The notes under the pieces: generated by a model
Database searches by the model: none
Seen by the model: only the letters and a program-made list of their open reading frames with translations
Told to the model about the DNA's origin: nothing
IMG/VR virus record: IMGVR_UViG_3300008262_000024
Location: 1 to 64,000 of that record
Length of the DNA stretch: 64,000 nucleotides
Source: a virus
Strand: one strand, 5' to 3'
Position numbers and translations under genes: made by a program
In this document: positions 32,901 to 62,728 of the stretch, piece after piece
How positions within the stretch are numbered: position 1 is the first letter of the stretch
Layout of the letters: each line of letters starts with the position of its first letter

Positions 32901-35722
32901 AGTCCTAAGACTTCAAACTTTTCTTCTAAACTTACATTAGGATCTTTTAACATTGCTAAAAAGTTAGCATCTTTATCACCTTTAAGTTTAAATCCTGTAA
33001 ACTCTGAATAGTTCTTTTTAAATTTAACTTTAGCTTCATTTAACAATGTGCTAATATAATTTTCTTTATTAGCAGGAATAAAAACCATGTTTCCATTCTT
33101 TAATAATCCTGTATAGAAATTATATTTAGTTAATGCAAACTCTGATACAAAAGATCTTCTTAAATCTAAGATTGTCTTTACATCATCAGTAATAGGTTGA
33201 TTGTTATCAATTATATCATCAACATTAATATCATTTAAATAATCTAATAAATCATTAAACTGAGGATATTTTTCAGATAACTCTTTAATCTTATCAATAA
33301 ATATATTAATATCTGCAGGTAATGTAGCTAATGAATTCTTAAGAATGTTAACATTATTGTTCCAACTACCTGCTTGAACAATGTTAAGTACATTTGATCT
33401 CTTTAGACTATAGTCTTTATTTCTATCAGGTAATGCACTAATTAAAAGCTTAATAGCTTTAGGCATGCTGTCTTTAGTATTAAACTCAATAGCTGGAATA
33501 ATATCAAGATTAGATCTACCTATCTTATCACCTTCTTCTTTTAAATCCTCTGCAGTTCTATCTTCAGTAAGATTATCAGTTTCAGTTGATAGTTTATCTG
33601 GTTTAGTAATAATGTCTGAAGTCTTTTCTTCTAAAGTTTTTATATTAAAAGAACTTAATCTACTTAAATGTTCTTTAATTAAACTAACAAATGCATTATC
33701 AGGATCTTCATTAAATGCTTCTAAAATTTCATTAGATTCAATTTTATTAGATATTTCAAGATCATCTAATACTTGATTAATTACAACATCATATACATTT
33801 TTAATTTGATCAGAAGTATAATTGCTTTCAGCAATATCAAATATTCCATTTACAAACTCTCCATTAAATTCTTTAGTAAAATTCTTTATAACACTTGGAG
33901 TAAATAATATTTTAGCAAAATAATAATCCATTGCAAATAACAACTCATGTTTTTCAGTAGCTGTTAATTCTCTACTGTTAATAGATATTGCTCTATTTTT
34001 TTCAACAGATGTATTCTCAACAAGCTTTTTAGCTTTAGAGTATCTACCCTCATCAATAAGTTTATAAAGTTCTTTAATGTCTTTAGGTGAAGCTTTTAAA
34101 AGTTTATCAAAGAAATTAATTATATCCTGATATATCTTTTCAAATATGTTAGATGGCTTAGGTTTAGCTAAATTGTAATCTCTAAAATCTTCTGCAAAGT
34201 ATTCTTCTATTAAATCATCTTCTGTAAGATCTGGATAACTCTTTGTAAGATATTGTATTTTAGATTTATAATCAGGATCTGATTTAAATTGATCTAACAA
34301 TCTAGATCTTTCTTCAGGAGTTAAATAAAAATTCCATACTCTATGAAATGCTTCATGATACTCAGTACCTTCTTCAAATGATTCTGACAAAAGTATTTTA
34401 CCATCTTTAAGTATTTTACCAAAAGCATTACCATCAACTAAACCTTGTACTCTAACAATTTCATTAGCTGACATACCAAGTTTTTCTCTTAAGTATTTTT
34501 CAGCTTTTGTAAAATCACCTTTTTTATATTCTAAAGGTTTTGATAATTTATTTTTTATATTTGTTTGAAGAGTTAATAATGCATTTTTCCAGTCATTATA
34601 TGTATTCATAGACTGAAAATTAATTTCTCTTTTATCTACAAAGTCTTTTACTTTTTCTTGAGCTGCTTTAGATATAAAAGGTTCATTTAATACTATAAAT
34701 CCTTCTAAATCTTCTCCTATAACTTTTTGTTCTTCTCCATACTTATTTATAAAATAAGATTCACCATCTTCTTTTTTATAATAATAATTTTCATCAGAAA
34801 TACCTTCTAATTTTAAATATGCTTTAAAAGCTTTATAATGATTTCTATGTTTATTATATAGTTGTTCAAAATTAGATGTATCTATATTTAAGTTTTTTGC
34901 AATTGCTATTAAAGCTAAAGAATTGTTTTTTAAATCATACCACTTTGGAATTGTATTTAAAAAAACTTCTTCATTATTTTTATAATGAACAACTTCATCA
35001 GGATAATTAACATTTAAACTTTCAAGAGATTTTGTAACATCTTTTCTATATTCTGGTTTACTTAAACTTGCTTTTCTAGATTTACCTTGTGCAAACTTCT
35101 TAAATCCTTCTATATCTTGTTTAGAACCTAATATGTGAATTTGTTTTTTAGATTTTACTACATATTCATCTCCACCTTGAGCAATAACTATTGCTGAATC
35201 ATTTGTTAAAAAAGTAGGATTAGCTTTATAAGCTAATTCTTTAGAATCAAAATCTGCTGAAAAATTTAAAATTACAGCATATTGTTGGTCACCATAATCT
35301 CTTGCTCTATCTCTATTTTTAAAAAAATAATTCCAAAGTCTAATGTTTACTTCATTGTCTCTACCTACTGATCCATCATCTTCACTATCTCTAAAAAAAT
35401 CATCCTTGTTTTCAATAAATGGAAGCCCGTGATAAAATATATCTTTTTCTTTACTATTAGGAAATATAGTGTCAAGATATTGAGAGTATAGTTCTAATGT
35501 ACCTATAGTAGCTAATTCAGGATTAGATTCAAATATTTCTGCCACTCCTAATTTAACAGATACTCTTTCTTCAACACCTAATTCTTTTAATGTAGGAAAT
35601 CTATCAGTATTATTTTGCTGTTGCCATAAAGCAATCTTTGCAGCAAGTACATCTGAATTTACAGTAGCTTTTGATTCTAAGTCTTTAAACTCTTTAGATG
35701 AAGTAACTATACAGTATGTCAT
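26948..35722 (-). CDS. Virion-packaged DNA-dependent RNA polymerase (crAss-like), multidomain
   Basis: 2924 aa; LRIPNQ and KTGGDFDIDK catalytic loop (about 30071-30085); KRL..QSS; accessory HEAFH zincin, ART-like and SLOG-like domains. Confidence 0.9.
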   Translation of the reverse strand: MTYCIVTSSKEFKDLESKATVNSDVLAAKIALWQQQNNTDRFPTLKELGVEERVSVKLGVAEIFESNPELATIGTLELYSQYLDTIFPNSKEKDIFYHGLPFIENKDDFFRDSEDDGSVGRDNEVNIRLWNYFFKNRDRARDYGDQQYAVILNFSADFDSKELAYKANPTFLTNDSAIVIAQGGDEYVVKSKKQIHILGSKQDIEGFKKFAQGKSRKASLSKPEYRKDVTKSLESLNVNYPDEVVHYKNNEEVFLNTIPKWYDLKNNSLALIAIAKNLNIDTSNFEQLYNKHRNHYKAFKAYLKLEGISDENYYYKKEDGESYFINKYGEEQKVIGEDLEGFIVLNEPFISKAAQEKVKDFVDKREINFQSMNTYNDWKNALLTLQTNIKNKLSKPLEYKKGDFTKAEKYLREKLGMSANEIVRVQGLVDGNAFGKILKDGKILLSESFEEGTEYHEAFHRVWNFYLTPEERSRLLDQFKSDPDYKSKIQYLTKSYPDLTEDDLIEEYFAEDFRDYNLAKPKPSNIFEKIYQDIINFFDKLLKASPKDIKELYKLIDEGRYSKAKKLVENTSVEKNRAISINSRELTATEKHELLFAMDYYFAKILFTPSVIKNFTKEFNGEFVNGIFDIAESNYTSDQIKNVYDVVINQVLDDLEISNKIESNEILEAFNEDPDNAFVSLIKEHLSRLSSFNIKTLEEKTSDIITKPDKLSTETDNLTEDRTAEDLKEEGDKIGRSNLDIIPAIEFNTKDSMPKAIKLLISALPDRNKDYSLKRSNVLNIVQAGSWNNNVNILKNSLATLPADINIFIDKIKELSEKYPQFNDLLDYLNDINVDDIIDNNQPITDDVKTILDLRRSFVSEFALTKYNFYTGLLKNGNMVFIPANKENYISTLLNEAKVKFKKNYSEFTGFKLKGDKDANFLAMLKDPNVSLEEKFEVLGLGSLSDVSEEGLNIIKDEVSKILNLVKVDKVSKIYDGEYSVRLNKIINVIAESKSENTELQFMNIDGKPVYLINLNTYQTIIADTINYYIDLVNNDDSIDPIEKRDYRIEYLKEALPHIFKNNQSENSRWIQKIYNGEKVEYAIVEGLKDVTLDKATHVSDLKEGDLFSLNLNMTLSGLSPSQKHSDRSLFPVYKIGTNSSILTPETNINNVVSQAKDVITGYLIDELNKPKGDYSYMDRTLKDEKTYKVKSFFSEIIPYNDFKDLVKGTLQPTDKYIADKITNYLKQSVISEDIKMFKEYGLNKTYKKVEGFGEYAETIYEQTAIGISEEIISKSLFNNDWELAVSYAALESFLQKYEQSILFVGDVTAYKESKDLPKRLNTQSSTGKLSLIGKEIDYQVRKLNSESPVKIGDTTYTYKKDYDVNIIRELVISDPAVKSYYYDNIKQAIKDKLLKDFKGDEQKAEQYATSYAKAYQEYTENDGFSYINMFMAREFELRTDEWNDAKQRNFDLQVKFINSGYDLDSIKDDLNIPDDVKDIGEWLFKTYAPLTIKKPQYVGPNDFTTTDEVGLNVIAGRKTAYLPLMPTAIYDVALNAVHEFMIANSIDVLHMEGAAKFGIKQMRPLYTEGNWDLQEITEDQIGRLPWKYMKNQVKINNIPKNKITSSTQARKNILEGFFDKGVPSDFPGTKEEWDSLSEEQKESASPVYSLVRKYEKVQNTIINRSIDNLLEELDAQVYPDEIKISVKKLRDVLVEAAKDRNSADNVIEAAEKFLEDVKYVELIPNSNKIEPILNALVTNRVLVQKRLGDMVPQAAVTGFESGPRQYDEDGTLKSDSDVLKFYEINKDGSISPAEIIIPVTPEILKAAFTKYNTRNILEAVQKLNSDIAKGDLEVIAKGLRIPNQQFSSNDVFKIKKFLLPMMQGMAVVPSELVAKTGGDFDIDKISLYYYHLDKDGNRIKYYETHTDELFDKFLEDKGVFKKQGDIKTDPNYKSFASRLDNLEAALNALGQEAINEFIKYANETTGKEATTSKEAKSNLREQQQNNQNTIDEIQKTLDASGRKTRKQAVEEGVFLENFDNLVAQQKSLIGQNKLIQRQINDFYAPTQEEKDLEAKRKSAIKAIRTRKKNIKEAFREEFEATPVEEINSQKALENHFLDIEIQMLLHPSQAKNLYSPVADTPLASSKSTYVPKEGIPMTRLFTEAFNVKASIRFVSGKAGVGQLATWINLADLAQRYGVKLNPEYPAVQINIEGFTSNLDLGNNLDEVGESVSIVLSALLTSQVDLVKDPYAEILNIVNQTLDTISYMVLRGISIENIIHIMKHPYISEFLKEERINQSMIIKSTGSFKKGGFVKSNADLKNQFGVLDYEPSIITIDQIKSKDKSISKDVLALFLNLREQAKEVNKVKRYYSPDTKYLKDRNGVIALNDLYQEINDVPFPIITLDEQRKLISNDSIIEPFFKGRELYNDLYERFYFVDKLKVYQAFKTTLPKLLYLTTTDKEKFYNKLDQHLITYFIQNFYSVIENYSFDEIMKGKNSLAKGLFDLKDNPKFKDNLFLQNIFVLLENGSAKLDNFRSFKGKGTTSFINEQADSFEELPLEIQNLIEIGNIFQSGTYNSVFQLNKFLPYTSQSKIVSDINDVIDAILTDSDFRSEIINEFAHKFLLANTEYLPEDWKFNPKYNYSNITSFFPYAIDNNNKVHLVIDGSLTSQIVTPIGNYQGVDYRKQVPITDNFVELASAYVEKASVNEDTGLLVSPVKKIIAGGQTGIDQLGLMVGKALKLETGGIAPKGYKTEKGLQPSLKEEYGLEESISSDYSVRTKLNVQNSNGTVLFGDITSTGSKLTLKLLSESGKPFIVNPTAIELKNWTIENNIKVLNVAGNRASKLTEKQLEVYKNVLIDGLSNQLVKTEEESDIFVPTEGLKKINPYATKPGAKPEVQDGTDKINIDNFDSFFPQFADISIDEKIQMLRAMSQEEIDKICKIG

Positions 35723-44191: not shown

Positions 44192-47100
44192 CTATTTATT
44201 CCACATATTTATTCTACCTTCTGAAGTATTTTTATAAACATCAGGAGTTCCTTTTCTTTTCCAATAATCAGAAAGTATATCTTGTTTAGCTTTATCTATT
44301 TTTTGTACAAAAGCAGGATCATTCATTAATGCTTTTATTTCAGCTTCTTTCTCTTTAAATAATTTTTCATCTGTTGCTTTAGTTTGTACATCATTTAAAG
44401 TAGTAAATCCTGCAGCTAAAAGTAAAACATCTTCTATGTTTCTTCCAGTATTATATTTATAATCAACTAATCTTTTTTGAACATCAACAGGATAATCTTT
44501 TACTTGTGGTAAATATTCTTTAGTTATAAATTCAGTAGCTTCATCTTTATCAATTTTATTATCTTTCCACATTTCAGGATATTTCTTAGACCATTTTTCT
44601 TTTTTTATACCATAATTTTCAAGACCTGTACCACCTGCTGATCCTTTAGTAGATTCATAATCTAAAATTTGATTTATCCATTCATTATTATTTACTTTAT
44701 CAGCAGGAGTAACATTAGCAGATGGTACATTAGCATTAGCAGCTGGTGTATTAGCACCTGTATTTGCTGCAGGTGCATTTTGTTTATAAGGATCATTGTA
44801 AGGTGTTGGTGTAAAAGTACCTCCTTCAGTATTTGGTACAAATTTAAAACCTCCTTGTCCATCTGGAACTAATTTAAAATTACCAGTACCAATATTATTA
44901 GCAATAGTTTTATTTACTTGATTAATTCTATAATCTCTAATCATATTAGCAGTAGAAGAACCTACACCACTAAGACCTTCTGTTACATTAGTTCTAGCAG
45001 CATCTTTTTCTTGCTGTCTATCAATTTGCTCTTGCATTGCTATTTGAGCATTTTGTGCATTAACTTGATTTTGCATTTGAGTATTAGCTACATCAGCTTC
45101 ATACTGTATACCTGCAGTTTGAGCACCTCTTTGATTAGCTGCTTGTAATCCTAATCCTCTCATATTAGACATATAACTTCCTGATGTAGGAGCACTTTGT
45201 CTTAAATTATAACCAGCTAAATCTTGAGCTTGTCTAGATTGTTTATTAGCTAATATTATTGCTCTATAAGGATCTATTTTATCAGCTTTAATTCTTTCAT
45301 AATTAACATCATCAGGTCCTTTTAATCCATAGTATAATTGACTTAATGGACCTGCAGCTTGTGCTGCCATTGATGCATAATCTAATCCTGTAAGACCTTG
45401 ATTAGGTTGATTAGGTTGATTAACTTTAGGAATAGATGCTCCTTCAGGTCTCCAACCTTCTTCATATTGACTAATCATATTTGGATTAATACTTACAGGA
45501 TCACCATCTAAATTAACACCTTCATATCCCCAATCTAGCATAGAAGTTGAACCTGTTAAAGGTTGTCCAAGTTCTGAAGGTATATTTTTATTAACAGGTG
45601 CATCAATGTTTTCAGTAATAGGTTCTGCAGATGAATTATTTATAATATTACCGCTTTTATCAAATTCAAAAGTTTCTAAATCTATAGATTCAGGACCTGC
45701 TTTTTTATTTGCACTTACCATAGGTGGTATAAATCCTGAAGTATTAGAAGTATTAGAAGTATTAGATACACGTGATGGTGAATATGGTCCAGGTATTTGT
45801 TCTACTGGTCTTAAATGTTCTGGTAAAAATGGACTAGGTTGATTAATAGGATTTATATTAGGCTGTTGGTTGTTAGTTGTACTTCTATTACCAATTCTAA
45901 ATCCTCTTTGTTTTAAATAATCTCTAGCACTTAAATAACTTCTAATTGTATTTAAAAAATTATTCATTGGATTAGGATTTGTATTTTTTTGTCTATCTAA
46001 AATACTAGTTGCATTACCTTGAGCATCTATTACATTAGGTGTATCCAAATTAGTTAAATAATTATTTATATTATTATATTCTGAAGCATCCATATCTGCC
46101 ATTCCTGGTAAATCATATGGAGGTCCACCATTAGAATACATATTACCACCTTGTGCCATCATCATTCCACCTCTGTTTTGTGCAGCTACTTGAAATGGTT
46201 GTGCAACATTAGATACCATTGGACCACCATGTGCATGTTTCCAACTAGCAGCATTTCTAGCAAAGTTAGCTTTCTTAACCATTGCTGAAGAATAATTTTC
46301 TTTATTAGCTAATACTTGTCTTGCAAACTCTTGTACAGATTTACCATGTTTAGTGGCTGCTGCAGTAAATGTACCTCTTTTAGATTCTTTAATATGTATA
46401 CCACCGCCTTCACCATATTGATTAACATAAGCATCAGCTTCTTGTGGTGACATGTGAGATTCAACTCTTGCTCTTAAAATTTCTTTAGGTAGTTTACCAC
46501 CTTTGGAATATCCTGGCATATTAAGTCCTTTATATTTTTTAGGATTAATATATCCACCATAAGCGGCAGCATATTCTTCCTCAACTATTTTTGTAATATC
46601 TTTATTTAGTTTACCACCTGCAGCTGCATATTGTAAAGCACCATTAACCATAGCTTGTCTTTGTTCTTCTTTAGCCTTAGCTTCAGCTCTAGCAAGTTCT
46701 GTTTCTTTAATAGCTCTCTGCTTAATTTGCTCAATAGTTTCTTCAACTAAAGGATCCATTGGTCTTCTAAGGTTATCTTTATATTTAGATAAATCTCTTA
46801 ATGTATATTTATCTAATCTTTTTTTAAGATTTTCAGCCATAGTTCTACCAAACTCATCTGTTTGAGTATTTTGACCATTTACTTCATCTGAAACTACATA
46901 ACTATCATCAAGAACATATTCTCCACCTTCTGCCATAGCATTAGGTCCAATAGGTACTCCACCATATGCATTTTCATGATGTAATCCTGATGATTTAGGA
47001 ATAAGGTTTATTCCATATTTTTCTAAAGTAGTTCCACCTTTAGAATATCTTGTTCTGTAGTTTTTGTATTTATCTCTCATAGAGTTTTGCAAATTTAATG

Positions 47101-50100
47101 AATTATTATTTATATTACCACCAGTAGCTGCAAATGATAATCCTTGATTTAACATTTGATCAGGATACATTGCAGGATTTTGAAAATTATTTATACTTGA
47201 ATCTACTGATGGTGTTGTACTTGGCATACCTTGTGAAGGATTTACAAATCTAGAACCTATTCCTACTAATTGTCCAGCAGCATTTAATTCTTTAGAACCA
47301 AATTCAGAACCTAAAGTTCCTAACACTTGACCTGCACCACTAACAATTTGTTGAGGATTACCACTTATTATACCAGAAGTTAAATTACCTGCACTAGATG
47401 CTATTTGACCTGTTTTATTTGCCCACTTATCAGCACCTCTTTGATATTCTTGACTATGTCCTAAATTTTTAGTAACTCCTTGTATAGCACCTTTACCCAT
47501 TCCATATGCAGGACCTAAAAATATTGAACCTGCAACATCAGTTCCTAAACCTGCAACTCCTTCCATTACAGCAGCTGCATTTGCAAATCCTTTATTATTA
47601 TAATTAAAATTAACAAAGTTATTACCACTTATTTGTTCAAATGGACTAGCTATAAAGTTTAACCCTAATTTACCAATATCTTCTAATACACCACCTCTCT
47701 TATATTGCATTGGTACACCTGCATAGTACATATATGGATTCATATAACCTCCTTGTGATTGTTGTTCAGGTTGAAGGTTTTGTTTCATTGTTGTTCCTAT
47801 TACAACACCTGTTGTTCCTGCAAATCCTATTTTATTTAATGATTTTCTTATTTTAGATATATCAAAATCATTTACACTTTGAACATATGGATGTTTTTGA
47901 TTTATTAAATATTGTAATGCATTTTTAATATCTTCATCATCTTTTGGATAATATACTCTACTACCATCTTTATCATTAAGTATCATTCTTAATTCATTTT
48001 GAACAGCTTCAGCTTCATAATGAGCTGCATCATGATTTTTATAAACATATGTACCATCTTGGTTTTTTAAACCTTTAGACCAAGCATCATCAAGTATTTT
48101 TCTTTCATGAACTGTAGGTAAAGTAGATAGATCTCTTAGAGTTCTACTATGAGCTGTTTCATGTATTCCAGTAAGATAAGTATCTTCAGGACTTAAATGT
48201 GGATCAATTACTATAATATCATCCTTATCCCCAATGTCTCTAATACCATATTTACCTTGTGATATATTTCCAGATTTATCTTCTAAATAAAGTCTAGGAT
48301 TATCTGCAACTTGTTTAAATGGATCTGGTTCTTTTGCATTTTCAAAATCTCTAAATCTATTAAACGGTTCAACAAGTTCAGGATCATTTGCAAATCTTGC
48401 TTTTTGATTACTTAAATTAAATTCATTATTAGTTCTAAATAATGAAAGTTTTTTTCTATTATATGGGGATTGTGAAAATGTAGCAGCGTCTTCATTAGCT
48501 TGCCATAAAGCAAAATTTCTTTTATCTGCTAATGAAGGTTTTTGTAATGGATTAATAGGAATATTTGGATTTACTGAAAAATTATTTTTAAAATAGTTTC
48601 TATATCCTGTTTTAGCAGTATTTAATCCCATACCTAAACCACCAATTACTCCTGGTGATCCTGATAAAAATAAACCTGTTTCTAAACCTCTAGCAAGTTT
48701 TTCATCCCAAGGTGCATTAGAACTATAATATCCACTATTTATATCTGATCCTAACATATTTGCACCAGAAATTCCTCCTGTTAATCCTAATATATTATTT
48801 CCAGTTAACCACGGTATAGTTCTTCCACCTACTACTGCAGGTAGTTGTAATGTTGAAGCTACTGCAGGAACAGTTTTAGATGCTATAGCTCCAGCAACTG
48901 GTGCAAATAATGCAGCTTCAATTGGACCCATTGTAGGTTCTGCTCTACCTGATGCTGGTGGTTGATAATTAGGATTTTGTATCCAACCAGTTTCTGAAGG
49001 AATAAATCTTGGTGCAGTTGGACCAACAATATCTGGATTATATAAACCAGTATCTTCAATATATTCAAGTTCAGGAAGTGTTCTTTGTAACATTTCATCA
49101 CCTGGCATCATGTAGTATTCATTATTTTCACTACCTACATAATTTATCATTTTATTTTGTTTAGGATCCCAAAATTTTTTACGATATAATGTTACAGAAT
49201 TATTTTTATTACCATCTTTATTATTACCACCTGTTGGTCCACCACCATCATACATATATCCACCTGTAGCTTTTTGATTATTTTTAATCCAACCTTTTTC
49301 AGTATCTGCACCAGGATACATATCTTTATACATATTATATTGATTCCAATCAATTGCTCTCCAACCTTGACCATCATCCATGTATAATTCAGGTGTTCCT
49401 CTATCTACACCATCTATAGTACCTTTCTTTAAACTTGGAGACATTTCTCTAAGTAATACTTTAGATGGAAATTTAAGTTGAATAGGACTTAATTTTAAAG
49501 GTTCTTCTTTAGATTCAAATCCTTTAAATGGTATAGATTGTAAGTTTGGTATTTCATCTAAAGTTGCTAATTTAATAGCAGGTTCATCCCAATAAGGAAT
49601 AGGATATGTATATTGATCTGGATCATTTACAATTGATTCTGGATAATATTCACCTCTTTTAAGATGCCAGTTTATATCATGTTCTTTATCAATACCATAT
49701 GTTTCTACATCAGTAATTTGTTCTATCCAATGATTAGTTTCATCTTTTCTATTTGTTATATATGTAGGATGATTTCTTCTATGAGTAACCATATCTAACA
49801 ATTCTTCTTTTGTTAAATTTGGATAATATTTTTGTAATTCTATAAGATTAGTATCATCTTCTATTTCTTTTGTAAAATTTTTTTTCCAAGGAGCTTTAGG
49901 TAAATATGTAGTAGCATATGCATTATCTAAAGGTTCAGCTTCCCAAGAAGTTTGATTATGATATTTTGAAGGTTTATATTTTTTAAATAAATTATTATAA
50001 TTCCATGGATTATCTAAATCATCATAACGATACTGTGACCAATTACTTGTTTCTCCATAATGATGTTCTGGTATTTCTGTAGTATAACTATAAGTTACTG

Positions 50101-53100
50101 GTGATCCATATGCACCTGTTATTGGATCTTCTGTTAAATTTGGATAACTACCATCATCTAAAGGTGATGCATAATAATTAGGAACTTTAACATTGATTGA
50201 ATTATTCCATTCATCATCTGATATAGTACCTAATTTATCTACATTTGAAAAAATATTGTAAAAATTTTCATCTGAATTTAATAAATATTCTTTTTGATAA
50301 TATGGTAATTTACTAAATTGATTCAATCTTAATCTTACTAAATAATCTTTATATTCAGGACTATCACGTTTATAGTATCTTTTAGGTGGATCATCATCAC
50401 CACCAAGTAATCCACCATTAGCTGCATATAACATATCTTGAGATTTTGTTTGATTACTTACAAAACTATCATTTAGAAATTTTAATTTTTCAGCATCACC
50501 TTTTATAAGTTCATATATATCTTTAATGTTAGAATCCAAATTTTCATCATCAAGATTTTTATTAATTATACTTCTTAATTCTTTAGGACTATAATCTTTA
50601 GTAGGATCAATATTATTTAATTGTCTCCATACACTTAATCTAGCCCTGATTTCTTCATCTTGAGTTAAAGCATCTTTACCACTTAACCATTTTTTATTAT
50701 TTTTAAATTCTTCAGGAAAACCACTGCTTATATTTAAAAATTCTTGAGGTGCTTTATTACTTAACCAATGATCATTTTCATGTGTTATTAAAGTATTTAT
50801 ATCTCCATAATATCTATTGTTAAGATCAGTGTCACTATAATCAATAGTATTTTTAGAAGGAGTATATAATCCTTCAGTTGTCATTTGATTAGAAGGTAAT
50901 ATATTTACTTTAGGATATTGATTTGGAGAGTTTAATAAATTTAATCTACTATTAGCAACATCTGTAAACTTAGGATTTTTTGCTCTACCTTCATACCACT
51001 TTTTAAAATAATCATATGTAGTTTTAGACGATTTATCTTTATCTCCACCATCTGAATAAATATAACCACCTGTAGCCTTTGGTTTATCATACAAGTTTCC
51101 TCCTGGATCTGGAGCTTCTAAATCTTTAAGAAGATATTGATCACTTAATTTTTTAAATTCTAATTCAGGTACTATTTGCTGTTCTTGACCAGAAATCCAT
51201 ACTCTATACATAGGATCTTCATAAGGAGATCTTCTGTATTTCTCATATGTACCTTCAAAAAAGTTATCTAAATTTGGTTTTCCAAAATCAACATTAGGAG
51301 GAGTTGCAATAATACCTGGTCCAACTTCTTCACCTTTATAAGGTTTTGAAGGTAATAATTCTATTTCTGGTTTTCCTAATATTGGTTTAATTTCTGGTTT
51401 TTTAAATATAGGCATTACAGCAGCTCCTTTTACTTTACTAAAATGATTACTATCATAAGCAATTTGAAAAGGTTTAATACCATTCTTACCATGCCAATAC
51501 TCCATTAATGGATCATCTCCTCTAATCATTTCGGGAGCACCTTCATATTTTTCAAACTCAAACTCTTCTCCAAAATCTTTATATTCTTTTAATTTATTAT
51601 TTGATACATTATATAAACTTAAACTATCATTATAAGCTCTTTCAGCTTTTTTAAATTCTGAAGGATTAGTGTATACTCTAGTTTTATTTTTATTTTTTTT
51701 ATTTTTATCTTTATCACCATCTACATAACCACCTTGAGCAGCATATTGCATAGGTGTTTGTGTTTGATTACTAGCAAGTGTATTTAAGTATTTAGATATT
51801 TCATCATCAGTATAATATTTAAATAAATGATTTTTATATCCTGATTCTTTAATTTGTTTTAATCTTTCTGGAGTAATTATTTCACCTGGTTGAAAATTAT
51901 TATCAAATCTCATTTGCATTAAGAAAGGATACATTTCACCTCTATTAAAATCTTTATCTAATCTATCTTGAGAAGGTGTTAAAAATTTACCTTTAAATGT
52001 TCTATCAAAAGTTTCATTATCATATAAACCTGTTTTATGCATTAACTCATGAACAGATACTGATTCTGGACCATATTGATCATTAGCTGCATTTGTAATT
52101 ACAATTCTACCTTGTTCATCAGTAAATCCTTGAGGATTTTTACTCATGGTTTTTTTAAAAAATTTATCATACTCAGGATCATTATAACTAGCTCTATATA
52201 AATCAAGTAATTGTGAATTATTTTCTGGATTTGTATTATATAAAAATTTAGTATCGTAGATATCACTTATAACACCAGGTATTGCTTTATTTATACTTTT
52301 TAAATTAGACTCAGCTGCTCTTTGTTTAGCTTCTTTATTTCCATAAATTTTTTTACTTAATTTTGAAGCATGGTCTGGAAAATTTTTATTTAATCTATTA
52401 GCAAATTCAGGATCTTGAACCCAAGAACTTACCCAATCTTGAGCAGGTTTAGCAACAGTAACTCCTTGATTTAAAGTAGATTTAAAAGGATCATCTTTAC
52501 CATCTGTTGGTCCACCTTGAGCTAATGAAACACCTTTATAAAAATTTGCAAGATCAAAATTTTGTCTATCATATTCTTGTCTACTAGGATAAGTTTGATA
52601 ATATTCTTCAGGAGTCATTCCTTGATTATTTATAAAACCTTCTCTCCATCTCATGTAACTATCGTACTCAGAATCTAAAATATCTTTATTTACTCCTGGC
52701 ATATAAGGATTATCAGTAGGATAAATAATATTATCATCTAATAATACTGGAGGTTGTACTAATGATTTGGTAGGTCCACCATGAGCATAAGGAATTCCTG
52801 TAGCTTTTTTATATCCTATTGATGATATATAATCAGCATATTGATTAGGTACTTTTATTGCTTCATTACCAGGATTCATTATAGTAGGATACATATAAGC
52901 TTGTCCTGTTTCATCTTCTCCCCATGCCATTAAATGAGAATTTTTTTGTCCAAATTCATTAACATCTGGTTGTACAAACATATTTGATTCTGGATATTCA
53001 CCAACAGCATAAGCTCTTTGCACAAAATCTTTATCTCTGTTTCTGTTCATAATAATTTTAGAAATTAAATCTCCTTCTAAAGTATTAACAGGTCCACCAT

Positions 53101-53236
53101 CAGAATATTGCTTAGCTTTAATTTTCCTTTCTTGCCTAAGCATTTCAGCAGTAGGCTTTTTAGGTTTAGCACCTGTCCTTCTGTTTTGTTCAGCTTTTTT
53201 CCTAATGTTTTTCCAGAGTGAGTTTTTTTCTGCCAT
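44192..53236 (-). CDS. Giant modular virion cargo protein (xxxGG-punctuated; three zincin modules; C-terminal lysozyme-like domain)
   Basis: 3014 aa; HELMH, HENDH, HETAH; about 20 xxxGG motifs; Gly-rich TM-like segments; C-terminal ILDYE..GG...YGI...D..YNTG. Confidence 0.75.
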   Translation of the reverse strand: MAEKNSLWKNIRKKAEQNRRTGAKPKKPTAEMLRQERKIKAKQYSDGGPVNTLEGDLISKIIMNRNRDKDFVQRAYAVGEYPESNMFVQPDVNEFGQKNSHLMAWGEDETGQAYMYPTIMNPGNEAIKVPNQYADYISSIGYKKATGIPYAHGGPTKSLVQPPVLLDDNIIYPTDNPYMPGVNKDILDSEYDSYMRWREGFINNQGMTPEEYYQTYPSRQEYDRQNFDLANFYKGVSLAQGGPTDGKDDPFKSTLNQGVTVAKPAQDWVSSWVQDPEFANRLNKNFPDHASKLSKKIYGNKEAKQRAAESNLKSINKAIPGVISDIYDTKFLYNTNPENNSQLLDLYRASYNDPEYDKFFKKTMSKNPQGFTDEQGRIVITNAANDQYGPESVSVHELMHKTGLYDNETFDRTFKGKFLTPSQDRLDKDFNRGEMYPFLMQMRFDNNFQPGEIITPERLKQIKESGYKNHLFKYYTDDEISKYLNTLASNQTQTPMQYAAQGGYVDGDKDKNKKNKNKTRVYTNPSEFKKAERAYNDSLSLYNVSNNKLKEYKDFGEEFEFEKYEGAPEMIRGDDPLMEYWHGKNGIKPFQIAYDSNHFSKVKGAAVMPIFKKPEIKPILGKPEIELLPSKPYKGEEVGPGIIATPPNVDFGKPNLDNFFEGTYEKYRRSPYEDPMYRVWISGQEQQIVPELEFKKLSDQYLLKDLEAPDPGGNLYDKPKATGGYIYSDGGDKDKSSKTTYDYFKKWYEGRAKNPKFTDVANSRLNLLNSPNQYPKVNILPSNQMTTEGLYTPSKNTIDYSDTDLNNRYYGDINTLITHENDHWLSNKAPQEFLNISSGFPEEFKNNKKWLSGKDALTQDEEIRARLSVWRQLNNIDPTKDYSPKELRSIINKNLDDENLDSNIKDIYELIKGDAEKLKFLNDSFVSNQTKSQDMLYAANGGLLGGDDDPPKRYYKRDSPEYKDYLVRLRLNQFSKLPYYQKEYLLNSDENFYNIFSNVDKLGTISDDEWNNSINVKVPNYYASPLDDGSYPNLTEDPITGAYGSPVTYSYTTEIPEHHYGETSNWSQYRYDDLDNPWNYNNLFKKYKPSKYHNQTSWEAEPLDNAYATTYLPKAPWKKNFTKEIEDDTNLIELQKYYPNLTKEELLDMVTHRRNHPTYITNRKDETNHWIEQITDVETYGIDKEHDINWHLKRGEYYPESIVNDPDQYTYPIPYWDEPAIKLATLDEIPNLQSIPFKGFESKEEPLKLSPIQLKFPSKVLLREMSPSLKKGTIDGVDRGTPELYMDDGQGWRAIDWNQYNMYKDMYPGADTEKGWIKNNQKATGGYMYDGGGPTGGNNKDGNKNNSVTLYRKKFWDPKQNKMINYVGSENNEYYMMPGDEMLQRTLPELEYIEDTGLYNPDIVGPTAPRFIPSETGWIQNPNYQPPASGRAEPTMGPIEAALFAPVAGAIASKTVPAVASTLQLPAVVGGRTIPWLTGNNILGLTGGISGANMLGSDINSGYYSSNAPWDEKLARGLETGLFLSGSPGVIGGLGMGLNTAKTGYRNYFKNNFSVNPNIPINPLQKPSLADKRNFALWQANEDAATFSQSPYNRKKLSLFRTNNEFNLSNQKARFANDPELVEPFNRFRDFENAKEPDPFKQVADNPRLYLEDKSGNISQGKYGIRDIGDKDDIIVIDPHLSPEDTYLTGIHETAHSRTLRDLSTLPTVHERKILDDAWSKGLKNQDGTYVYKNHDAAHYEAEAVQNELRMILNDKDGSRVYYPKDDEDIKNALQYLINQKHPYVQSVNDFDISKIRKSLNKIGFAGTTGVVIGTTMKQNLQPEQQSQGGYMNPYMYYAGVPMQYKRGGVLEDIGKLGLNFIASPFEQISGNNFVNFNYNNKGFANAAAVMEGVAGLGTDVAGSIFLGPAYGMGKGAIQGVTKNLGHSQEYQRGADKWANKTGQIASSAGNLTSGIISGNPQQIVSGAGQVLGTLGSEFGSKELNAAGQLVGIGSRFVNPSQGMPSTTPSVDSSINNFQNPAMYPDQMLNQGLSFAATGGNINNNSLNLQNSMRDKYKNYRTRYSKGGTTLEKYGINLIPKSSGLHHENAYGGVPIGPNAMAEGGEYVLDDSYVVSDEVNGQNTQTDEFGRTMAENLKKRLDKYTLRDLSKYKDNLRRPMDPLVEETIEQIKQRAIKETELARAEAKAKEEQRQAMVNGALQYAAAGGKLNKDITKIVEEEYAAAYGGYINPKKYKGLNMPGYSKGGKLPKEILRARVESHMSPQEADAYVNQYGEGGGIHIKESKRGTFTAAATKHGKSVQEFARQVLANKENYSSAMVKKANFARNAASWKHAHGGPMVSNVAQPFQVAAQNRGGMMMAQGGNMYSNGGPPYDLPGMADMDASEYNNINNYLTNLDTPNVIDAQGNATSILDRQKNTNPNPMNNFLNTIRSYLSARDYLKQRGFRIGNRSTTNNQQPNINPINQPSPFLPEHLRPVEQIPGPYSPSRVSNTSNTSNTSGFIPPMVSANKKAGPESIDLETFEFDKSGNIINNSSAEPITENIDAPVNKNIPSELGQPLTGSTSMLDWGYEGVNLDGDPVSINPNMISQYEEGWRPEGASIPKVNQPNQPNQGLTGLDYASMAAQAAGPLSQLYYGLKGPDDVNYERIKADKIDPYRAIILANKQSRQAQDLAGYNLRQSAPTSGSYMSNMRGLGLQAANQRGAQTAGIQYEADVANTQMQNQVNAQNAQIAMQEQIDRQQEKDAARTNVTEGLSGVGSSTANMIRDYRINQVNKTIANNIGTGNFKLVPDGQGGFKFVPNTEGGTFTPTPYNDPYKQNAPAANTGANTPAANANVPSANVTPADKVNNNEWINQILDYESTKGSAGGTGLENYGIKKEKWSKKYPEMWKDNKIDKDEATEFITKEYLPQVKDYPVDVQKRLVDYKYNTGRNIEDVLLLAAGFTTLNDVQTKATDEKLFKEKEAEIKALMNDPAFVQKIDKAKQDILSDYWKRKGTPDVYKNTSEGRINMWNK
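45398..45422. repeat. In-frame 9-bp tandem microrepeat (NQP repeats)
   Basis: TTGATTAGG x2 plus a partial copy, in a low-complexity linker. Confidence 0.6.
45738..45766. repeat. In-frame 9-bp tandem microrepeat (SNT repeats)
   Basis: GAAGTATTA x3. Confidence 0.7.
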
Positions 53237-53238
53237 AA

Positions 53239-56200
53239 TTATCTAGGTAGTATTTTACTTCTTAATGAGTATTCAGTCATTACATCATGTAGTCTGAATA
53301 TTTTATCTCCACCATTAATAGTATGTTTAAATAGTACATCAATATATTTATCAGACATTCTTGGTTTTATAGTTAAGTTAGGATTAGTTTCATCTCTTGG
53401 GATTTGTAATCTCCAAGATCTAATCTTCTCAGTAAAGTTAGCAATTCTTTCATTAACTATTTGATAGTCATTAGATATACCATAACTAGTAATAGTTTCA
53501 TTTAATTGTTGATCTGTTGCTACATCAATAACTTCAGTATTAATAATAAAGTTATCAAATGTCTTTACAAAGTCTGAGTTTTCATTAACTCTAAATTTAA
53601 TATATGATGGGAATGTAGTTTCATAAAAAGTATTTCTTAATCCTAGATTATGTGTATATACTTCAGATGTTTGTGAAGGATTAATTGACAAAAATCTTTT
53701 TCTCATATTAAGATATAATGATGGATAAAAGTCACAGAAAGATTCAAAAGAATCTAATAGTTCATTATATGCAATAGTATAAGAAGTTTCAAATGGTCCA
53801 TCTGGAACAAAGAATGTAAAATAAACTGTATTGTATTCTGAGTTGTATCCTGATACAATACCACATCTTTGTGGTGTACCTTGCTTAGTAGGTGGTAATA
53901 GAATTTTATCTTTAGTTTTTAATTCAGTATTAACAAATGCAGTTCTAAAGAATCCACTTAAACCATTAACATCAGTAAGTGGTGATACACCTGCACCATC
54001 TTTAGACATTGAATATTTAAACAACTTATTAATAAAAGCATCATAGTGATATATAGCAGAACCTGTAGCTTTTACAGCAAATGAATGTTTAGCTCCTGTT
54101 TCAGTAGATATATAGTCAAATCTTTGAAGTAAAGTACCTGTACCTAATTGAGTTTGTGTAGCATCACCTTCATTAGCAAGTACTCTCTCATTAACAGATG
54201 CAACACCAAATCCATCATTTTGATAATAGTATAGTTTATCTTTAAATTGAACTAGTCTATTGATCTCACCATAGTTACCATTAACAGTAAGTGCATTGTT
54301 AATTAAGAATGATCTCCAACTATCTATTCTTTCATTATCTAACTTAGGTTCTGTACCATATATAGTATGTGGTTCACGAACTACATTAGTTTGATTTAAG
54401 CCTTTAGATATAAATAGGTTAGTTGTATTTTGTTGAGATAGTGCATCATTATAAACATAATAACTTGGAGTTATTGTATAACTACCTTCAACAGTATCTA
54501 ATCTATTAGATGCATGTTGATTACTTATATTTAATTCTGTATTAAATGATGATTCACAAGGAAAAAATAAACCTAATCCAAATGGAGGATTACTTCCTGG
54601 ATTTGGACTTATATCCCATCCACTACCTTCTTTATAATTTATATTACTTCTTTGCCAATCAAAATAATTAACATAAGTATCTCCACCAAATACACCATTA
54701 GTTACTAATCCACTAGGATAATTATCTTCTGATGTATTTTTATCCCAAGGTTGAAAGTGATTAGTAAGTATATAATCATTACCATATCTATCAGATCTTA
54801 ACCATCCACCATATTGACTTGTTAAATATCTTTCATATGAAGTTAAATATAATGGTAATTTTAAAGTATTACTATTATATGCTCTAGAAGTATCAGGTCC
54901 AGGTTGAATAAATGTCATTAATTCACAAGCATTACCCCATTCCATATATTCATTATTTTCAGCTTCATTCATGTTAGAAGAAGCCATATTTATAAATGGA
55001 AAATCTAAACCTGTAATACTATTAACAGGTAAAGAGCCTCCACCTGTTGGATAATTAACATATGTTCTACCTGCTATTTCAAATTTATTTTTAGATGTAG
55101 CTGTATAATCTGAAGTTGTACCTGTACTATCTGGTACTAAAGGATTAGTTGTTTCAAGTCCATAAGTATAATTAAAATCAGCAGATGCTATATAATATAA
55201 TACTGTATTTGAAGGCCATGTTGCAGAATTAAATATTTTTTGAGAATAATATGATAATTGACTAAAATCATTAGTCCTACCTATCATTCTCATATAATCA
55301 TTTGATATAAAAAAACCTGATTTTCTATTTAAAAAATTAGGTGAATAAAAAGTTTGTATTCTAGCTCTTGTTCTCCAATTAGGATTACCTTGTATTGTTG
55401 AATCAAATAACCATCTATCATTTGTAGGAAGTATATCACCACTTCTTTCATAAGGTACTATATTATATTTACCTACTGAATCTGGAGCAAATTCTACATA
55501 TACAGTTGGTAATAAAACACCTGTACCTAATCTAGTACTATTATTAATATCTCTTCTAACTCTTACATAAGACCATCCAGATATTTGATCTTTAATAGCT
55601 TGAAACTGTGGTTTACTAATGTCTAATGTAAATTTAATACCTATTTGTTTTGTATATAAGTCACCACTTACTTGAGAATAACCTGCAGGAAAAACTATTG
55701 CTGAAGTACTGTTTACAGTAGAACCACCAGGAAGAGCTTCAATTATTAAACCAACAGCACCTAAACCTGCAGGAAATGAAAAATAAACTTGAGTTGAATT
55801 ATAAACTGATGCAGTTATATCTAAAGCATTAGGTAAAAATGAAGTATTAAATGTATCAACATAATCTGTTATATCAGACACGCTACCACTAAATAATAAA
55901 GTATTATTAAATATAGTTTGACTAAGTGAATCAGAGTAATATGAAGGGTCTATTGTTAGAATTGCAAAATCTCTATTACCTGCATTATTATCAGTTAAAC
56001 CAAAATCTCCATTACTGTCATATGCAAATGGAAACTTAATATCACCTATCCAATTAACATAAGATGGATAACCATATATATCATAGAATACAATACCAAA
56101 TCTATACACTTCACCTCTAGAATATCCTGTAAATAAAGATTCTACATAAGGATTTTTCATAGAATCTAATGATGTATTGTTAGATAAATAATAAGTATAT

Positions 56201-58014
56201 GTATCTGTGAATGGTTGTGTAAAATCATTAACACCATCCATAGCAGGTCTTATATAAGGTGTTGTATTTGGTAAACCTGCAAGTTTAGCTAATTTAGTAT
56301 CAACAATAAATTCATAACTTATATTTAAACCTTCACCACCTAATGTTATACCATCAGATTTATATTTGTATTGAGAATTAGCTCCCCAGTTACCAGCAGA
56401 TAATGGATTTACAGATATATCAGGATTCTCATCATTAAATGGATTTATAACATCAAAATTATCAGGTATTAATGAATAGTCAATAGGACCTGATATATTA
56501 CCTTCAATAGATATTGTATTACTATTAGCATTTATTAAAACTGATGGAGTTGATATAGTATCACTTGCATTATATAGTTTAGATATTCTTGAAGAATTAA
56601 ATCTATAAGCTCTTGCATCAAATGCAGGATCAAAGTATTTAGTAATTGCATTAGCTGCAAACAATCTATTTCTTACAACATCAAGAGTTTTAAATATTTC
56701 TGGTGGTCTATTAAGATTAGCAATCTCTGTAGAATCTACAGGAATGTCATTCTCATTACCATTGTGAACTATACTTATAAATCCATCATCAGGAATAAAT
56801 CTTTCATCAAAAAAGAATGCTTCTGGAAAATCTGCAATCTGATATACTATATAACCTATTCTAATAATATCATAGTTAGTATCTAAATTAGTTAATTGAA
56901 TCTTAACTGACTTTTGTGAATTAACTCCTGGTTTACTACCTGTAACTACATATTTAGAAATATCACCTGAAAATAATGATATTAAACTACTTACAGGTGA
57001 GTATGTAGATTTGGCACCTTGATTAGAATATAGTTGATAGAAGTATTGATATTTACCTGCAGGTAATGTACCACCATCTATTATTTGTTCAATAATAGGT
57101 TTTTGTGGTAAGTGTAATGGTATATAAGAAAATAATTCTTCAGGTGTTGCCCATATTTGAGGGTCTTGTATATTACAAGTTCTTAAGTTATTATACCAAT
57201 CTGTCCATACTACTCTTGTAATTTCAGTACTTTCAAATCTACATTTTAAATGTTCACTAATAGTATAGTTTCTAGATAGATTTAATCTACCTGCATATTT
57301 TAATGTGGTTAATGGTTTTAAAAACAAACCATCTAGTTGTGAAGTAATTATATTACCAGTAGCATTATTATAAGTTACATCCCATAAAAACCCTTCAGTA
57401 TCTAAAGGATCTACTGAAGATTCTCCTCCACTACAACTTATAAGTACTACATTATCATTATATACACCCCATCCTAATATAGTATGGCCAGTAATTTTAT
57501 CTGTTCTTTGTATATATTCTATATTACTTGTAGTAACAGTTATACTAGAATTAATAATATCTGATTGTGGTTTAAAATCATATAGTACTACATTATTAGA
57601 ATTAAAATAAAACTTTAAATTTTCTTTACCAGAAAATATAAATGTAGGATCTGCAAGTATATTATTTAATTCAATACTTATAAACTCATATGATTTATCT
57701 TGTATGTTATTTATAGTAAAGAAATTTTGTTCAACATAAGAAAAACCTGTTGAAGGATCAAACACTGTTCTTTGTATAAATATAAATGCTGTACCTGAGT
57801 AATTATTAATCTTGGTAAATGAATGTGTAGCTTCAATTGGAGGTAACTTAAAGTCAAACTTATTACCTCTAATGTTTTCTATAGCAAATGTTGATGAACC
57901 CTCATCAGTAATTACCCTGATGTTTTTAGCATCAAGGTAACTATCTGGTTGAGTTTTAAGTTTTGAAAAGTCTGAATTTAATCCTTTAATCCAAGTGTTC
58001 TTACTTACTGGCAT
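53239..58014 (-). CDS. Tail stabilisation / muzzle protein (crAss-like)
   Basis: 1591 aa, beta-rich; KGLNSD..YLDAKNIR N-terminus, WTDWYN, GEVYRFGIVFYD, FGGDTY, YGEINRL. Confidence 0.8.
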   Translation of the reverse strand: MPVSKNTWIKGLNSDFSKLKTQPDSYLDAKNIRVITDEGSSTFAIENIRGNKFDFKLPPIEATHSFTKINNYSGTAFIFIQRTVFDPSTGFSYVEQNFFTINNIQDKSYEFISIELNNILADPTFIFSGKENLKFYFNSNNVVLYDFKPQSDIINSSITVTTSNIEYIQRTDKITGHTILGWGVYNDNVVLISCSGGESSVDPLDTEGFLWDVTYNNATGNIITSQLDGLFLKPLTTLKYAGRLNLSRNYTISEHLKCRFESTEITRVVWTDWYNNLRTCNIQDPQIWATPEELFSYIPLHLPQKPIIEQIIDGGTLPAGKYQYFYQLYSNQGAKSTYSPVSSLISLFSGDISKYVVTGSKPGVNSQKSVKIQLTNLDTNYDIIRIGYIVYQIADFPEAFFFDERFIPDDGFISIVHNGNENDIPVDSTEIANLNRPPEIFKTLDVVRNRLFAANAITKYFDPAFDARAYRFNSSRISKLYNASDTISTPSVLINANSNTISIEGNISGPIDYSLIPDNFDVINPFNDENPDISVNPLSAGNWGANSQYKYKSDGITLGGEGLNISYEFIVDTKLAKLAGLPNTTPYIRPAMDGVNDFTQPFTDTYTYYLSNNTSLDSMKNPYVESLFTGYSRGEVYRFGIVFYDIYGYPSYVNWIGDIKFPFAYDSNGDFGLTDNNAGNRDFAILTIDPSYYSDSLSQTIFNNTLLFSGSVSDITDYVDTFNTSFLPNALDITASVYNSTQVYFSFPAGLGAVGLIIEALPGGSTVNSTSAIVFPAGYSQVSGDLYTKQIGIKFTLDISKPQFQAIKDQISGWSYVRVRRDINNSTRLGTGVLLPTVYVEFAPDSVGKYNIVPYERSGDILPTNDRWLFDSTIQGNPNWRTRARIQTFYSPNFLNRKSGFFISNDYMRMIGRTNDFSQLSYYSQKIFNSATWPSNTVLYYIASADFNYTYGLETTNPLVPDSTGTTSDYTATSKNKFEIAGRTYVNYPTGGGSLPVNSITGLDFPFINMASSNMNEAENNEYMEWGNACELMTFIQPGPDTSRAYNSNTLKLPLYLTSYERYLTSQYGGWLRSDRYGNDYILTNHFQPWDKNTSEDNYPSGLVTNGVFGGDTYVNYFDWQRSNINYKEGSGWDISPNPGSNPPFGLGLFFPCESSFNTELNISNQHASNRLDTVEGSYTITPSYYVYNDALSQQNTTNLFISKGLNQTNVVREPHTIYGTEPKLDNERIDSWRSFLINNALTVNGNYGEINRLVQFKDKLYYYQNDGFGVASVNERVLANEGDATQTQLGTGTLLQRFDYISTETGAKHSFAVKATGSAIYHYDAFINKLFKYSMSKDGAGVSPLTDVNGLSGFFRTAFVNTELKTKDKILLPPTKQGTPQRCGIVSGYNSEYNTVYFTFFVPDGPFETSYTIAYNELLDSFESFCDFYPSLYLNMRKRFLSINPSQTSEVYTHNLGLRNTFYETTFPSYIKFRVNENSDFVKTFDNFIINTEVIDVATDQQLNETITSYGISNDYQIVNERIANFTEKIRSWRLQIPRDETNPNLTIKPRMSDKYIDVLFKHTINGGDKIFRLHDVMTEYSLRSKILPR

Positions 58015-62176: not shown

Positions 62177-62728
62177 TTATTTAAAAAGTGTTACTCTACC
62201 AAATTTGGTGTATTGTTTATTGTTTACATCTTTATAACTAAGTTTATAGGTATAGACATCATCTTGGCAAATTTCACCTTTGTATGTACCATCCCATCTA
62301 TTGTTTAAATCATTACTTACAAAAAGTAATTCTCCCCATCTATTCCAGATAGTAAGTTTAAAATCTTTAATGTTAATTCCATAAGCACCAAATGTATCAT
62401 TAACTCTATCATCATTAGGTGTAAATGAATTAGGTATCCATAAAAAACTTTCCTTACATTCAATGATTTGTAATACTAATAAGTCTTTAGTATAACAATA
62501 ACCATTGCTAAAAGTAGCAGTAATTACATATGTACCCAAGTCACTGATAGTTATTGTCATAACATCATCATTAACTTGGTAAGGTATTAAAGGGGAAACA
62601 CTCCAGTTTATAGATTGTGCTGAAGTGTTTGCTCTTATTTCCTTCTGAATATATGAATCACATAATTCATATGTTGTTTGTGCCATGAGATTCATACTTA
62701 TCAATAATGTAAGTAGTGTATATTTCAT
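62177..62728 (-). CDS. Secreted protein with gliding-motility-associated (T9SS type B) C-terminal domain
   Basis: Signal peptide; IPNSFTPNDDRVNDTF..LTIWNRWGELLF..WDGTYKG..DVYTY..GRVTLFK. Confidence 0.92.
   Translation of the reverse strand: MKYTLLTLLISMNLMAQTTYELCDSYIQKEIRANTSAQSINWSVSPLIPYQVNDDVMTITISDLGTYVITATFSNGYCYTKDLLVLQIIECKESFLWIPNSFTPNDDRVNDTFGAYGINIKDFKLTIWNRWGELLFVSNDLNNRWDGTYKGEICQDDVYTYKLSYKDVNNKQYTKFGRVTLFK

Follow-up and report, generated by a model that had tools for sequence, protein, structure and literature searches.

A conserved Gly-Gly junction motif at the module boundaries of a giant homologue of crassvirus cargo protein 1

Background

When a single phage protein is punctuated, over most of its length, by some twenty short peptides ending in Gly-Gly (GG), a question of function arises: are these the cutting sites of a precursor, the joints of a chain that stays intact, mere folding breaks, or the trace of a signal in the DNA? 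The protein in question, of 3014 amino acid residues (aa), is encoded in a 64,000-nt stretch of viral DNA, henceforth the window (positions 1 to 64,000 of the IMG/VR record IMGVR_UViG_3300008262_000024). The source genome is a linear record of 92,842 bp with a CheckV completeness of 55%, a figure that may be off for this clade, given that homologous genes sit on contigs of 92-97 kb. The window is part of a crAss-like phage genome, and the 3014-aa protein is a homologue of crassvirus cargo protein 1 (C1), known from phage crAss001 as gp45, but is 3.6 times as long as usual. Crassviruses are the most abundant human gut phages, and the way in which megadaltons of protein are loaded into them and ejected is still to be explained (PMC10172136). 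By analogy with crAss001, from which every statement on virion location made here is carried over, the 3014-aa protein is most likely packed in the virion and injected.

Results

The GG motif is a real signal, specific to the C1-type protein. All 20 motifs listed in a preliminary description of this DNA are present, from YSDGG (aa 44-48, nt ~53098) to YSNGG (aa 2367-2371, nt ~46129), as are the sequences that it quoted from behind them, GGPTDGKDDP, GGDKDK and GGDDDPPK. Measured against 1000 shuffles of the same protein, the pattern [AS]xGG occurs 20 times where 2.4 occurrences are expected (shuffle maximum, 10), and the stricter pattern Y[AS]x(1-2)GG occurs 9 times instead of 0.26 (shuffle maximum, 3), a test that rules out chance or composition as the origin of the motif. 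No enrichment is seen in the five adjacent large open reading frames (ORFs; 1325, 2924, 2118, 694 and 1591 aa), and all other ORFs of the 92,842-bp genome combined hold 14 [AS]xGG. A family logo over 1,719 GG sites reads [MQ]-Y-A-x-G-G-[PYM]-[IMVL], often with a further GG 7 residues off. The doubling of motifs noticed earlier is borne out by a 2.2-2.5 fold enrichment of GG at -7 and +7/+8 from a GG, and some units between motifs measure merely 19-31 residues. The supposed preference for starts rich in Pro, Asp and Lys fared less well: Pro does follow GG in 14% of cases (2.4-fold enriched), but Tyr is equally common there (14%), and the next position is hydrophobic. Possibly, the motif belongs to a longer peptide that is itself repeated: a unit of ~19 residues, GG-Y-[IM]-N-P-x-x-Y-x-G-x-x-M-x-x-Y-[SK]-[KR]-GG, occurs twice on the minus strand (46501-46557 and 47695-47751, that is, aa 2229-2247 and aa 1831-1849) and is kept in homologues.

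The assignment of the carrier to C1 follows from four observations. First, the Pfam family PF25725 (crAss_CARG1) matches aa 2075-2194 with 28.6 bits against a gathering cut-off of 27, and it is also found in several homologues. Second, a Foldseek search with an AlphaFold2 (AF2) model of aa 2030-2380 returned 7qog_M, the domain of gp45 bound to the portal, at the top, with probability 1.00, TM(target) of 0.64 and 29% identity over 127 columns, the second-ranked match having an E-value of only ~3. Third, BLASTP connects the core of the protein to crAss001 gp45 with E-values of 1e-6 (portal-binding domain) and 3e-5 (small helical module); a phmmer search of aa 2030-2380 against PDB sequences missed gp45. 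Fourth, the gene adjoins the muzzle gene on its downstream side and precedes the cargo block of the RNA polymerase (RNAP), represented by a DFDID RNAP protein at 26948-35722 (-), the same order as in crAss001, where gp45 comes after the muzzle protein gp44.

The same motif recurs throughout the C1 family. A database search yielded 62 giant homologues of 1,664-3,014 aa, and 59 of them carry 10-26 [AS]xGG each, compared with ~2 expected, the exceptions being the three weakest. Around the small helical module at 80 IMG/VR loci, the ORFs are mostly ordinary C1 genes coding for 600-1,000 aa, and most of these ~80 C1-region ORFs contain ~5-12 motifs per 1000 aa. In crAss001 gp45, the motifs are FSAYGG, FAEGG, KAFGG, NAFGG and FAYGG. 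The motif is also carried by g070 and g069 of Cellulophaga phage phi14:2, which jointly resemble a split C1 with two HExxH modules. Both of these proteins (L085:8509-11667) were detected in the virion of this cultured phage; g070 comprises a segment of the portal-binding type and the two HExxH modules, each preceded by GG-x-V-D-P-P, and g069 the Gly-rich and C-terminal C1 parts. The motif closes the basic N-terminal leader and, in many C1 proteins, stands 1-13 residues ahead of a basic C-terminus. At three IMG/VR loci (L012, L051, L071), C1 is apparently split, with the upstream ORF ending 6-15 residues past a GG motif and the downstream ORF beginning ~30 residues ahead of the YxxGG in front of the IHIKxSK module. 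Some IMG/VR phages (L059:4956-5405; L054, upstream ORF 8131-8895) have another kind of junction unit, KKGG-[MVI]-LLYKK-GG, with a hydrophobic core and flanking lysines, which is found both as tandem copies and at C-termini. No published description of the motif was found in the literature searched, and the structural study of crAss001 (PMC10172136) does not mention it. As far as we could find, then, the junction motif of C1 proteins is a previously undescribed feature, although its carriers, C1 cargo and polyvalent proteins, are of known kinds.

Homologue coverage along the 3014-aa protein (P0001) changes stepwise, and the conserved plan is a leader followed by passengers and the C1 core, to which this protein adds a rare C-terminal module (Table 1). 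Among the passengers, one is a well-supported zincin-like metallopeptidase and two others are weaker candidates. In the former, M3, the His, Glu and His of HExxH and the Glu 38 residues downstream are invariant in 22 homologues. With the zincin model, Foldseek found no significant match in the PDB, and modest but consistent matches came only from a wide VIA search, in which the sole whole-domain structural matches were gluzincins, namely PepO, Zmp1, neprilysin, ECE-1 and anthrax lethal factor (Z 5.3-5.9). Some proteins that align with M3 have matches, somewhere along their full length, to DUF6782 or Peptidase_M91. M3-type zincins almost never stand free: only 3 such shorter proteins were found, two of them on short contigs. 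The C-terminal half and tail of the candidate module M5 resemble M3 (E 5e-4), whereas the HETAH module shows no similarity to M3 and has no homologue in the set, so that the notion of three paralogous zincins is not established. A search of aa 947-1322 in the ESM Atlas gave nothing.

The core consists of a Gly-rich hydrophobic stretch, the portal-binding domain, small modules and the C-terminal C1 domain. Its small helical module, which is 60-88% identical in many crAss-like phages and is modelled by AF2 with a confidence (pLDDT) of ~96, comes after the portal-binding domain here and before it in crAss001 and typical C1 proteins. The last 175 residues are GH108-like as a lead only (ESM Atlas feature score 0.92, with 18 of 30 matches in Glyco_hydro_108 clusters); this module is rare in homologues and is joined through a Pro/Ala/Asn-rich linker, not through the motif. 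One homologue has an ADP-ribosyltransferase domain, and a peptide related to the leader is an internal module in L006. Two other candidates were discarded: the HHEN..GG..EGGE segment, considered as a GG-specific protease, is the portal-binding domain (7qog_M), and the NINNNSLNLQNS stretch, considered as read-through intergenic DNA, is conserved among homologues, and its model is helical.

The motifs, as the preliminary description had it, mark the borders between these modules. Reading recombination junctions at the protein level, we defined as heavily used those breakpoints at which at least 8 high-scoring segment pairs (HSPs) end; each of the 13 lies within 7 residues of a GG. Among all 374 HSP ends, 42% fall within 5 residues of [AS]xGG, compared with 7% of positions. 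The further expectation that insertions, deletions and cassette swaps in orthologues would be bounded by the motif came true in four relatives. Thus, P0003 equals the 3014-aa protein minus aa 732-1825 (YSDGG to QSQGG); P0004 and P0006 lack aa 155-499 (YAHGG to YAAQGG); and P0007 is 98% identical solely between GG|PTKS (aa 153) and QYAAQGGY| (aa 504), with both flanks unrelated. The position of the M3-type zincin module varies from 40 to 1,258 among homologues. Scans for the two-module cassette found one distant locus in IMG/VR and none in metagenomes. The earlier idea of a modular polyprotein therefore holds as regards the modular cargo protein, the protein-specific motif signal and the motif-bounded swaps; the cutting that it also supposed is what we doubt.

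The structural setting of the junctions is of interest in this respect. In the AF2 model of aa 232-512 (pLDDT 84.6, pTM 0.81), aa 243-491 are confidently placed and both junction peptides score below 50, even though the junction residues G10, G11, A268, G271 and G272 do not vary among 22 homologues. The helices modelled for aa 2030-2380 end with Y-A-x, and GG lies in breaks or low-confidence stretches. In crAss001, cryo-electron microscopy (cryo-EM) resolved gp45 as two ordered pieces only, 214-245 and 425-552 (PMC10172136). These pieces begin 4 residues past FSAYGG and at the AFGG of NAFGG, and stop 13 and 7 residues short of the next motifs, so that they are bracketed by FSAYGG and FAEGG and by NAFGG and FAYGG, respectively. 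A conserved peptide within a linker predicted to be disordered is the signature of a short linear motif.

Table 1. Features of the 3014-aa protein and of related genes in the window
Feature	Position (nt)	Strand	Evidence or remark
3014-aa ORF, giant homologue of crassvirus C1 (crAss001 gp45 type)	44192..53236	-	ORF listing and translation
Span of the 20 listed motifs (aa 44-2371)	46124..53107	-	19 of the 20 [AS]xGG inside; remaining one at aa 2866-2869
Basic N-terminal leader, aa 1-48, ending in YSDGG	53093..53236	-	51-53 HSPs from 62 homologues; coverage falls right past the motif
Variable passenger region, aa 49-1825, between leader and C1 core	47762..53092	-	Low, stepwise homologue coverage; steps at motifs
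Two-module cassette, aa 151-505	51722..52786	-	98% identical to P0007; breakpoints exactly at ..GG|PTKS and QYAAQGGY|
Zincin-like metallopeptidase module M3, aa 243-503	51728..52510	-	HELMH and downstream Glu
Module M5, aa 732-946, candidate second zincin-like module	50399..51043	-	HENDH; HExxH in 6/6 homologues
HETAH module, aa ~1560-1830, orphan; weak zincin assignment	47747..48559	-	Motif by translation
Conserved C1 core, aa 1826-2800	44837..47761	-	HSP coverage ~20-59; gp45 BLASTP
Portal-binding domain, aa 2069-2208, between YSKGG and YAAAGG	46613..47032	-	PF25725; 7qog_M
Small helical module, aa 2279-2338, between YGEGGG and HAHGG	46223..46402	-	PHROG match (phrog_20603)
C-terminal GH108-like (lysozyme-type) module, aa 2840-3014, lead	44195..44719	-	ESM Atlas features
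Muzzle protein gene, directly upstream of the 3014-aa ORF	53239..58014	-	PF25731 (E 2.8e-146) and PF25729
HExxH (zincin-like) segment, EGTEYHEAFH at aa 456 of the 2924-aa RNAP fusion	34016..34552	-	Possible virion-borne protease

The surroundings of the gene are those of a crassvirus. The ORFs just upstream encode ring protein 2, ring protein 1 and the muzzle (PF25702, PF24228, PF25731), and the genes for the major capsid protein and for ring proteins 3 and 4 lie further along the same genome. The downstream ORF of 694 aa occupies the place of cargo protein C2, a status that it has by position only, as BLASTP found no similarity to crAss001 gp46. The 2924-aa protein of the RNAP block is a fusion of the zincin-like segment, the DFDID RNAP core at aa 1880 and a C-terminal, circularly permuted YpsA SLOG domain (PF12694, E 9e-25, aa 2701-2828), unlike in crAss001, where the zincin-like, RNAP and SLOG parts are on separate proteins. 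A replication module on the plus strand (1-22927) contains a homing-endonuclease-type ORF (HNH_3/NUMOD), a B12-dependent ribonucleotide reductase, Thy1, dUTPase, dATP/dGTP diphosphohydrolase and a match to a spore-photoproduct-lyase-like radical SAM protein. Next to an M15 peptidase, the small proteins at 62177-63330 (-) show a CHU_C type IX secretion sorting domain and PKD/Ig-like matches.

Discussion

What, then, is the role of the junctions? As observed here, the motif is specific to one protein family, is about as conserved as catalytic residues, lies outside the folded parts, and sits at the points of cassette exchange. We favor the view, with a probability of about 0.45, that it is an uncut hinge or docking junction and, at the same time, an evolutionary seam of the C1 cargo protein. 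The history of this protein can be envisaged as the insertion of ~1,780 aa of passengers between the basic leader and the usual core of a crassvirus C1, with the GH108-like module added at the C-terminus. The modules would be strung on disordered linkers, each bearing [MQ]-[YF]-[AS]-x-G-G with [PYM] and then a hydrophobic residue behind it. Mostly left uncut in the virion, the junctions would be flexible hinges at which helices end and which keep the modules independent of one another; they may also be handles, present in many copies, to which a conserved partner in the virion docks. The chain would be packed and later extruded through the portal and the tail module by module. Recombinants joined at the seams would remain functional, which could account for the mosaic character of the family.

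The residue that follows the motif is of importance here. Pro comes after GG at 6 of the 20 sites in this protein, in 23% of the 610 strict motifs of the giants and in 11% of those in short C1 proteins, and Pro at P1' would be incompatible with simple cleavage right after GG by ordinary endopeptidases. Besides, tandem motifs 7 residues apart would yield tiny products if cut.

Several considerations weigh against an uncut chain. So conserved a pentapeptide exceeds the needs of a plain hinge, and the binding partner is only hypothetical. The published mass spectrometry of crAss001, being based on tryptic peptides from a gel band, is silent on neo-termini. Zincin-like domains are present in both the C1 protein and the RNAP block. 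Finally, 12 copies of the 2,074 residues N-terminal of the portal-binding domain amount, by our arithmetic, to ~2.7 MDa, whereas the tail cargo zone of crAss001 holds ~0.4 MDa (PMC10172136); hence the topology of gp45 is not scalable to this protein without cutting or rearrangement.

The last two points bring us to the main rival, the alternative put forward in the preliminary description, a processed polyprotein, which we regard as possible but rather unlikely. Here, a zincin-like peptidase, either a C1-borne module or the conserved zincin-like domain of the RNAP block, would cut the chain within or beside the motif, either while the virion is assembled or once the protein has been ejected, to free the passengers and small peptides; a cut on the amino side of the aromatic residue is possible and would suit a gluzincin. 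The confidently folded M3 has an intact, invariant HExxH...E and is flanked by disordered motifs, and its C-terminal tail, Q-x3-Q-Y-A-A-x-G-G-Y, is as conserved as the active site. Autoprocessing by such zincins has been predicted for polyvalent proteins (PMC5512222), and 10.1101/2020.03.07.982082 holds that fused RNAP-block proteins are likely cleaved and notes a virion zincin; the homologous HExxH segment of the RNAP block is present in this phage, with a BLASTP E-value of 3e-9 to aa 2090-2298, in the C-terminal part of crAss001 gp47, where the same HExxH motif is found. At three loci (L065, L074, L081), the natural N-terminus of C1 is the residue after the GG of the IHIKPSK module, and the volume argument given above likewise speaks for cutting.

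Against this stand the Pro residues, which would block a cut directly after GG, and the apparent pointlessness of heptapeptides and products of 19-31 residues. The RNAP-block proteins themselves are nearly motif-free, and most motif-bearing C1 proteins, those of the short C1 loci included, have no detectable M3-type zincin. The crAss001 virion bands of ~150, 270 and >300 kDa (Shkoporov 2018) would fit intact gp49, gp47 and gp50; if they are so assigned, these large cargo proteins are not diced by the virion zincin. The supplements of that study do not state the gel band of gp45, and in the literature searched no paper reports cleavage. A Pfam scan of most ORFs of at least 90 aa in the 92.8-kb record found no cysteine GG-protease of clan CE, no C39 peptidase and no prohead protease, with the reservations that several small ORFs and the 3' end lay outside the scan, that CheckV puts the completeness of the record at 55% and that divergent proteases would escape such profiles. 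One more candidate processing enzyme, a Peptidase_M42-like ORF (12468-13700, +, 410 aa), was rejected, as the family consists of aminopeptidases and the ORF belongs to the replication module; its match is partial (profile 129-290/292; 19.4 bits alone, 24.5 bits with neighbouring in-frame matches).

A broader version of the same idea, which we find doubtful, is that the motif is the recognition site of a maturation pathway common to Crassvirales, whereby a virion zincin dices C1 into separately located pieces. If true, this dicing would give tail-barrel helices, portal-bound domains, free enzymes and small peptides; it would explain why one crAss001 gene product is found in both the tail and the capsid; and the giant C1 proteins would be true polyproteins that deliver a changeable set of effectors.

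More improbable still, in our estimate, is a passive seam, in which the motif, as a strong helix stop with a flexible break (a Schellman-type C-cap), would have no reader protein and would simply insulate the folding of neighbouring modules, the shuffling pattern following from selection against breakpoints within domains. The AF2 helices do end at Y-A-x and are broken by GG, the hydrophobic residues at -3 and +2/+3 would fit the C-cap pattern, and the junction of the GH108-like module manages with a linker of another kind. However, ordinary linkers do not hold one pentapeptide across families as far apart as those of crAss001, phi14:2 and this phage; the N-terminal leader, too, ends in the motif, which is also found just ahead of many C-termini; and for the tails at several junctions the prediction is disorder, not a helix.

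It is highly implausible that, as an extension of the earlier suggestion that motif DNA is a recombination joint, a DNA signal drives cassette exchange and the peptide is a by-product: breakpoints do lie exactly at GG codons and GGTGG[AT] is used in 19 of the 20 motifs, but in the rest of the genome, too, GG pairs are GGT-first in 73% of cases, so that the sequence offers little evidence of a signal beyond short microhomology; moreover, the codons of Ala/Ser and x vary, leaving at most 5-8 fixed bases, the amino acid pattern reaches positions that are degenerate in the DNA, and the motif is kept in C1 genes with no sign of recent shuffling. Microhomology of a few bases may help illegitimate recombination; selection at the peptide level explains the pattern better.

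The motif is found in every C1-type cargo protein examined, from crAss001 to the marine phi14:2. A conserved junction peptide provides a concrete handle on the loading and ejection of crassvirus cargo, indicating where to seek neo-termini, which residues to mutate and which peptides to dock, with the portal, ring and muzzle proteins as docking targets. The seams also show the C1 scaffold as a plug-in carrier, for zincins, the GH108-like module and, in one relative, an ADP-ribosyltransferase. Such a carrier bears on host takeover, on the rapid diversification of phages and, possibly, on the engineering of phage-delivered proteins.

Comparison with known systems

Polyprotein processing at Gly-Gly-X sites is known from African swine fever virus (ASFV), where pp220 and pp62 are cut by pS273R, and from the adenovirus protease; in both, a cysteine protease of clan CE cuts after GG. 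The likeness is that a large virion protein precursor has xxGG sites recurring between its parts. The differences are that no clan CE family was detected in the ORFs scanned here, and that Pro often follows GG, whereas GG-specific processing goes with a residue other than Pro at that position, which is not the case at 6 of the 20 sites.

Podovirus ejection proteins offer another parallel. T7 gp16 carries a lytic transglycosylase, so that an attached cell-wall hydrolase module, GH108-like in our case, has a counterpart there; we know of no junction motif or cassette shuffling in these proteins. Like C1, the podovirus ejection proteins (T7 gp14/15/16 and P22 gp7/16/20; compared in PMC10172136) are stored in the capsid, leave before the DNA and cross the cell envelope.

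The polyvalent proteins (Iyer, Burroughs, Anand, de Souza and Aravind 2017, PMC5512222) are likewise giant, multi-domain phage proteins predicted to travel with the DNA, with recurrent zincin-like metallopeptidase modules and a mosaic, fast-shuffling architecture; an ADP-ribosyltransferase appears in one homologue of the protein described here. As in that class, several unrelated effector-type domains are combined, including the zincin-like M3 and, as a lead, the GH108-like module, with ADP-ribosyltransferase, DUF6782 and M91 among the homologues. The text of PMC5512222, for its part, mentions neither crAss-like phages nor glycine, and, in contrast to polyvalent proteins, most modules here cannot be recognised as members of an enzyme family, and it is a virion ejection protein that provides the scaffold.

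The crAss001 C1 protein gp45 (Bayfield et al. 2023, PMC10172136; PF25725; 7QOG chain M) shares with the 3014-aa protein the gene position after the muzzle, the portal-binding domain, the small helical module with IHIKxSKxGxFT, the Gly-rich hydrophobic stretch and the C-terminal domain, and in gp45, too, aromatic-A-x-GG peptides bracket the parts that are ordered in cryo-EM. It differs in having 842 aa instead of 3014, in placing the small module ahead of the portal-binding domain instead of behind it, and in that the giant protein holds ~1,780 aa of passengers with zincin-like modules between leader and core and ends in an added GH108-like C-terminus.

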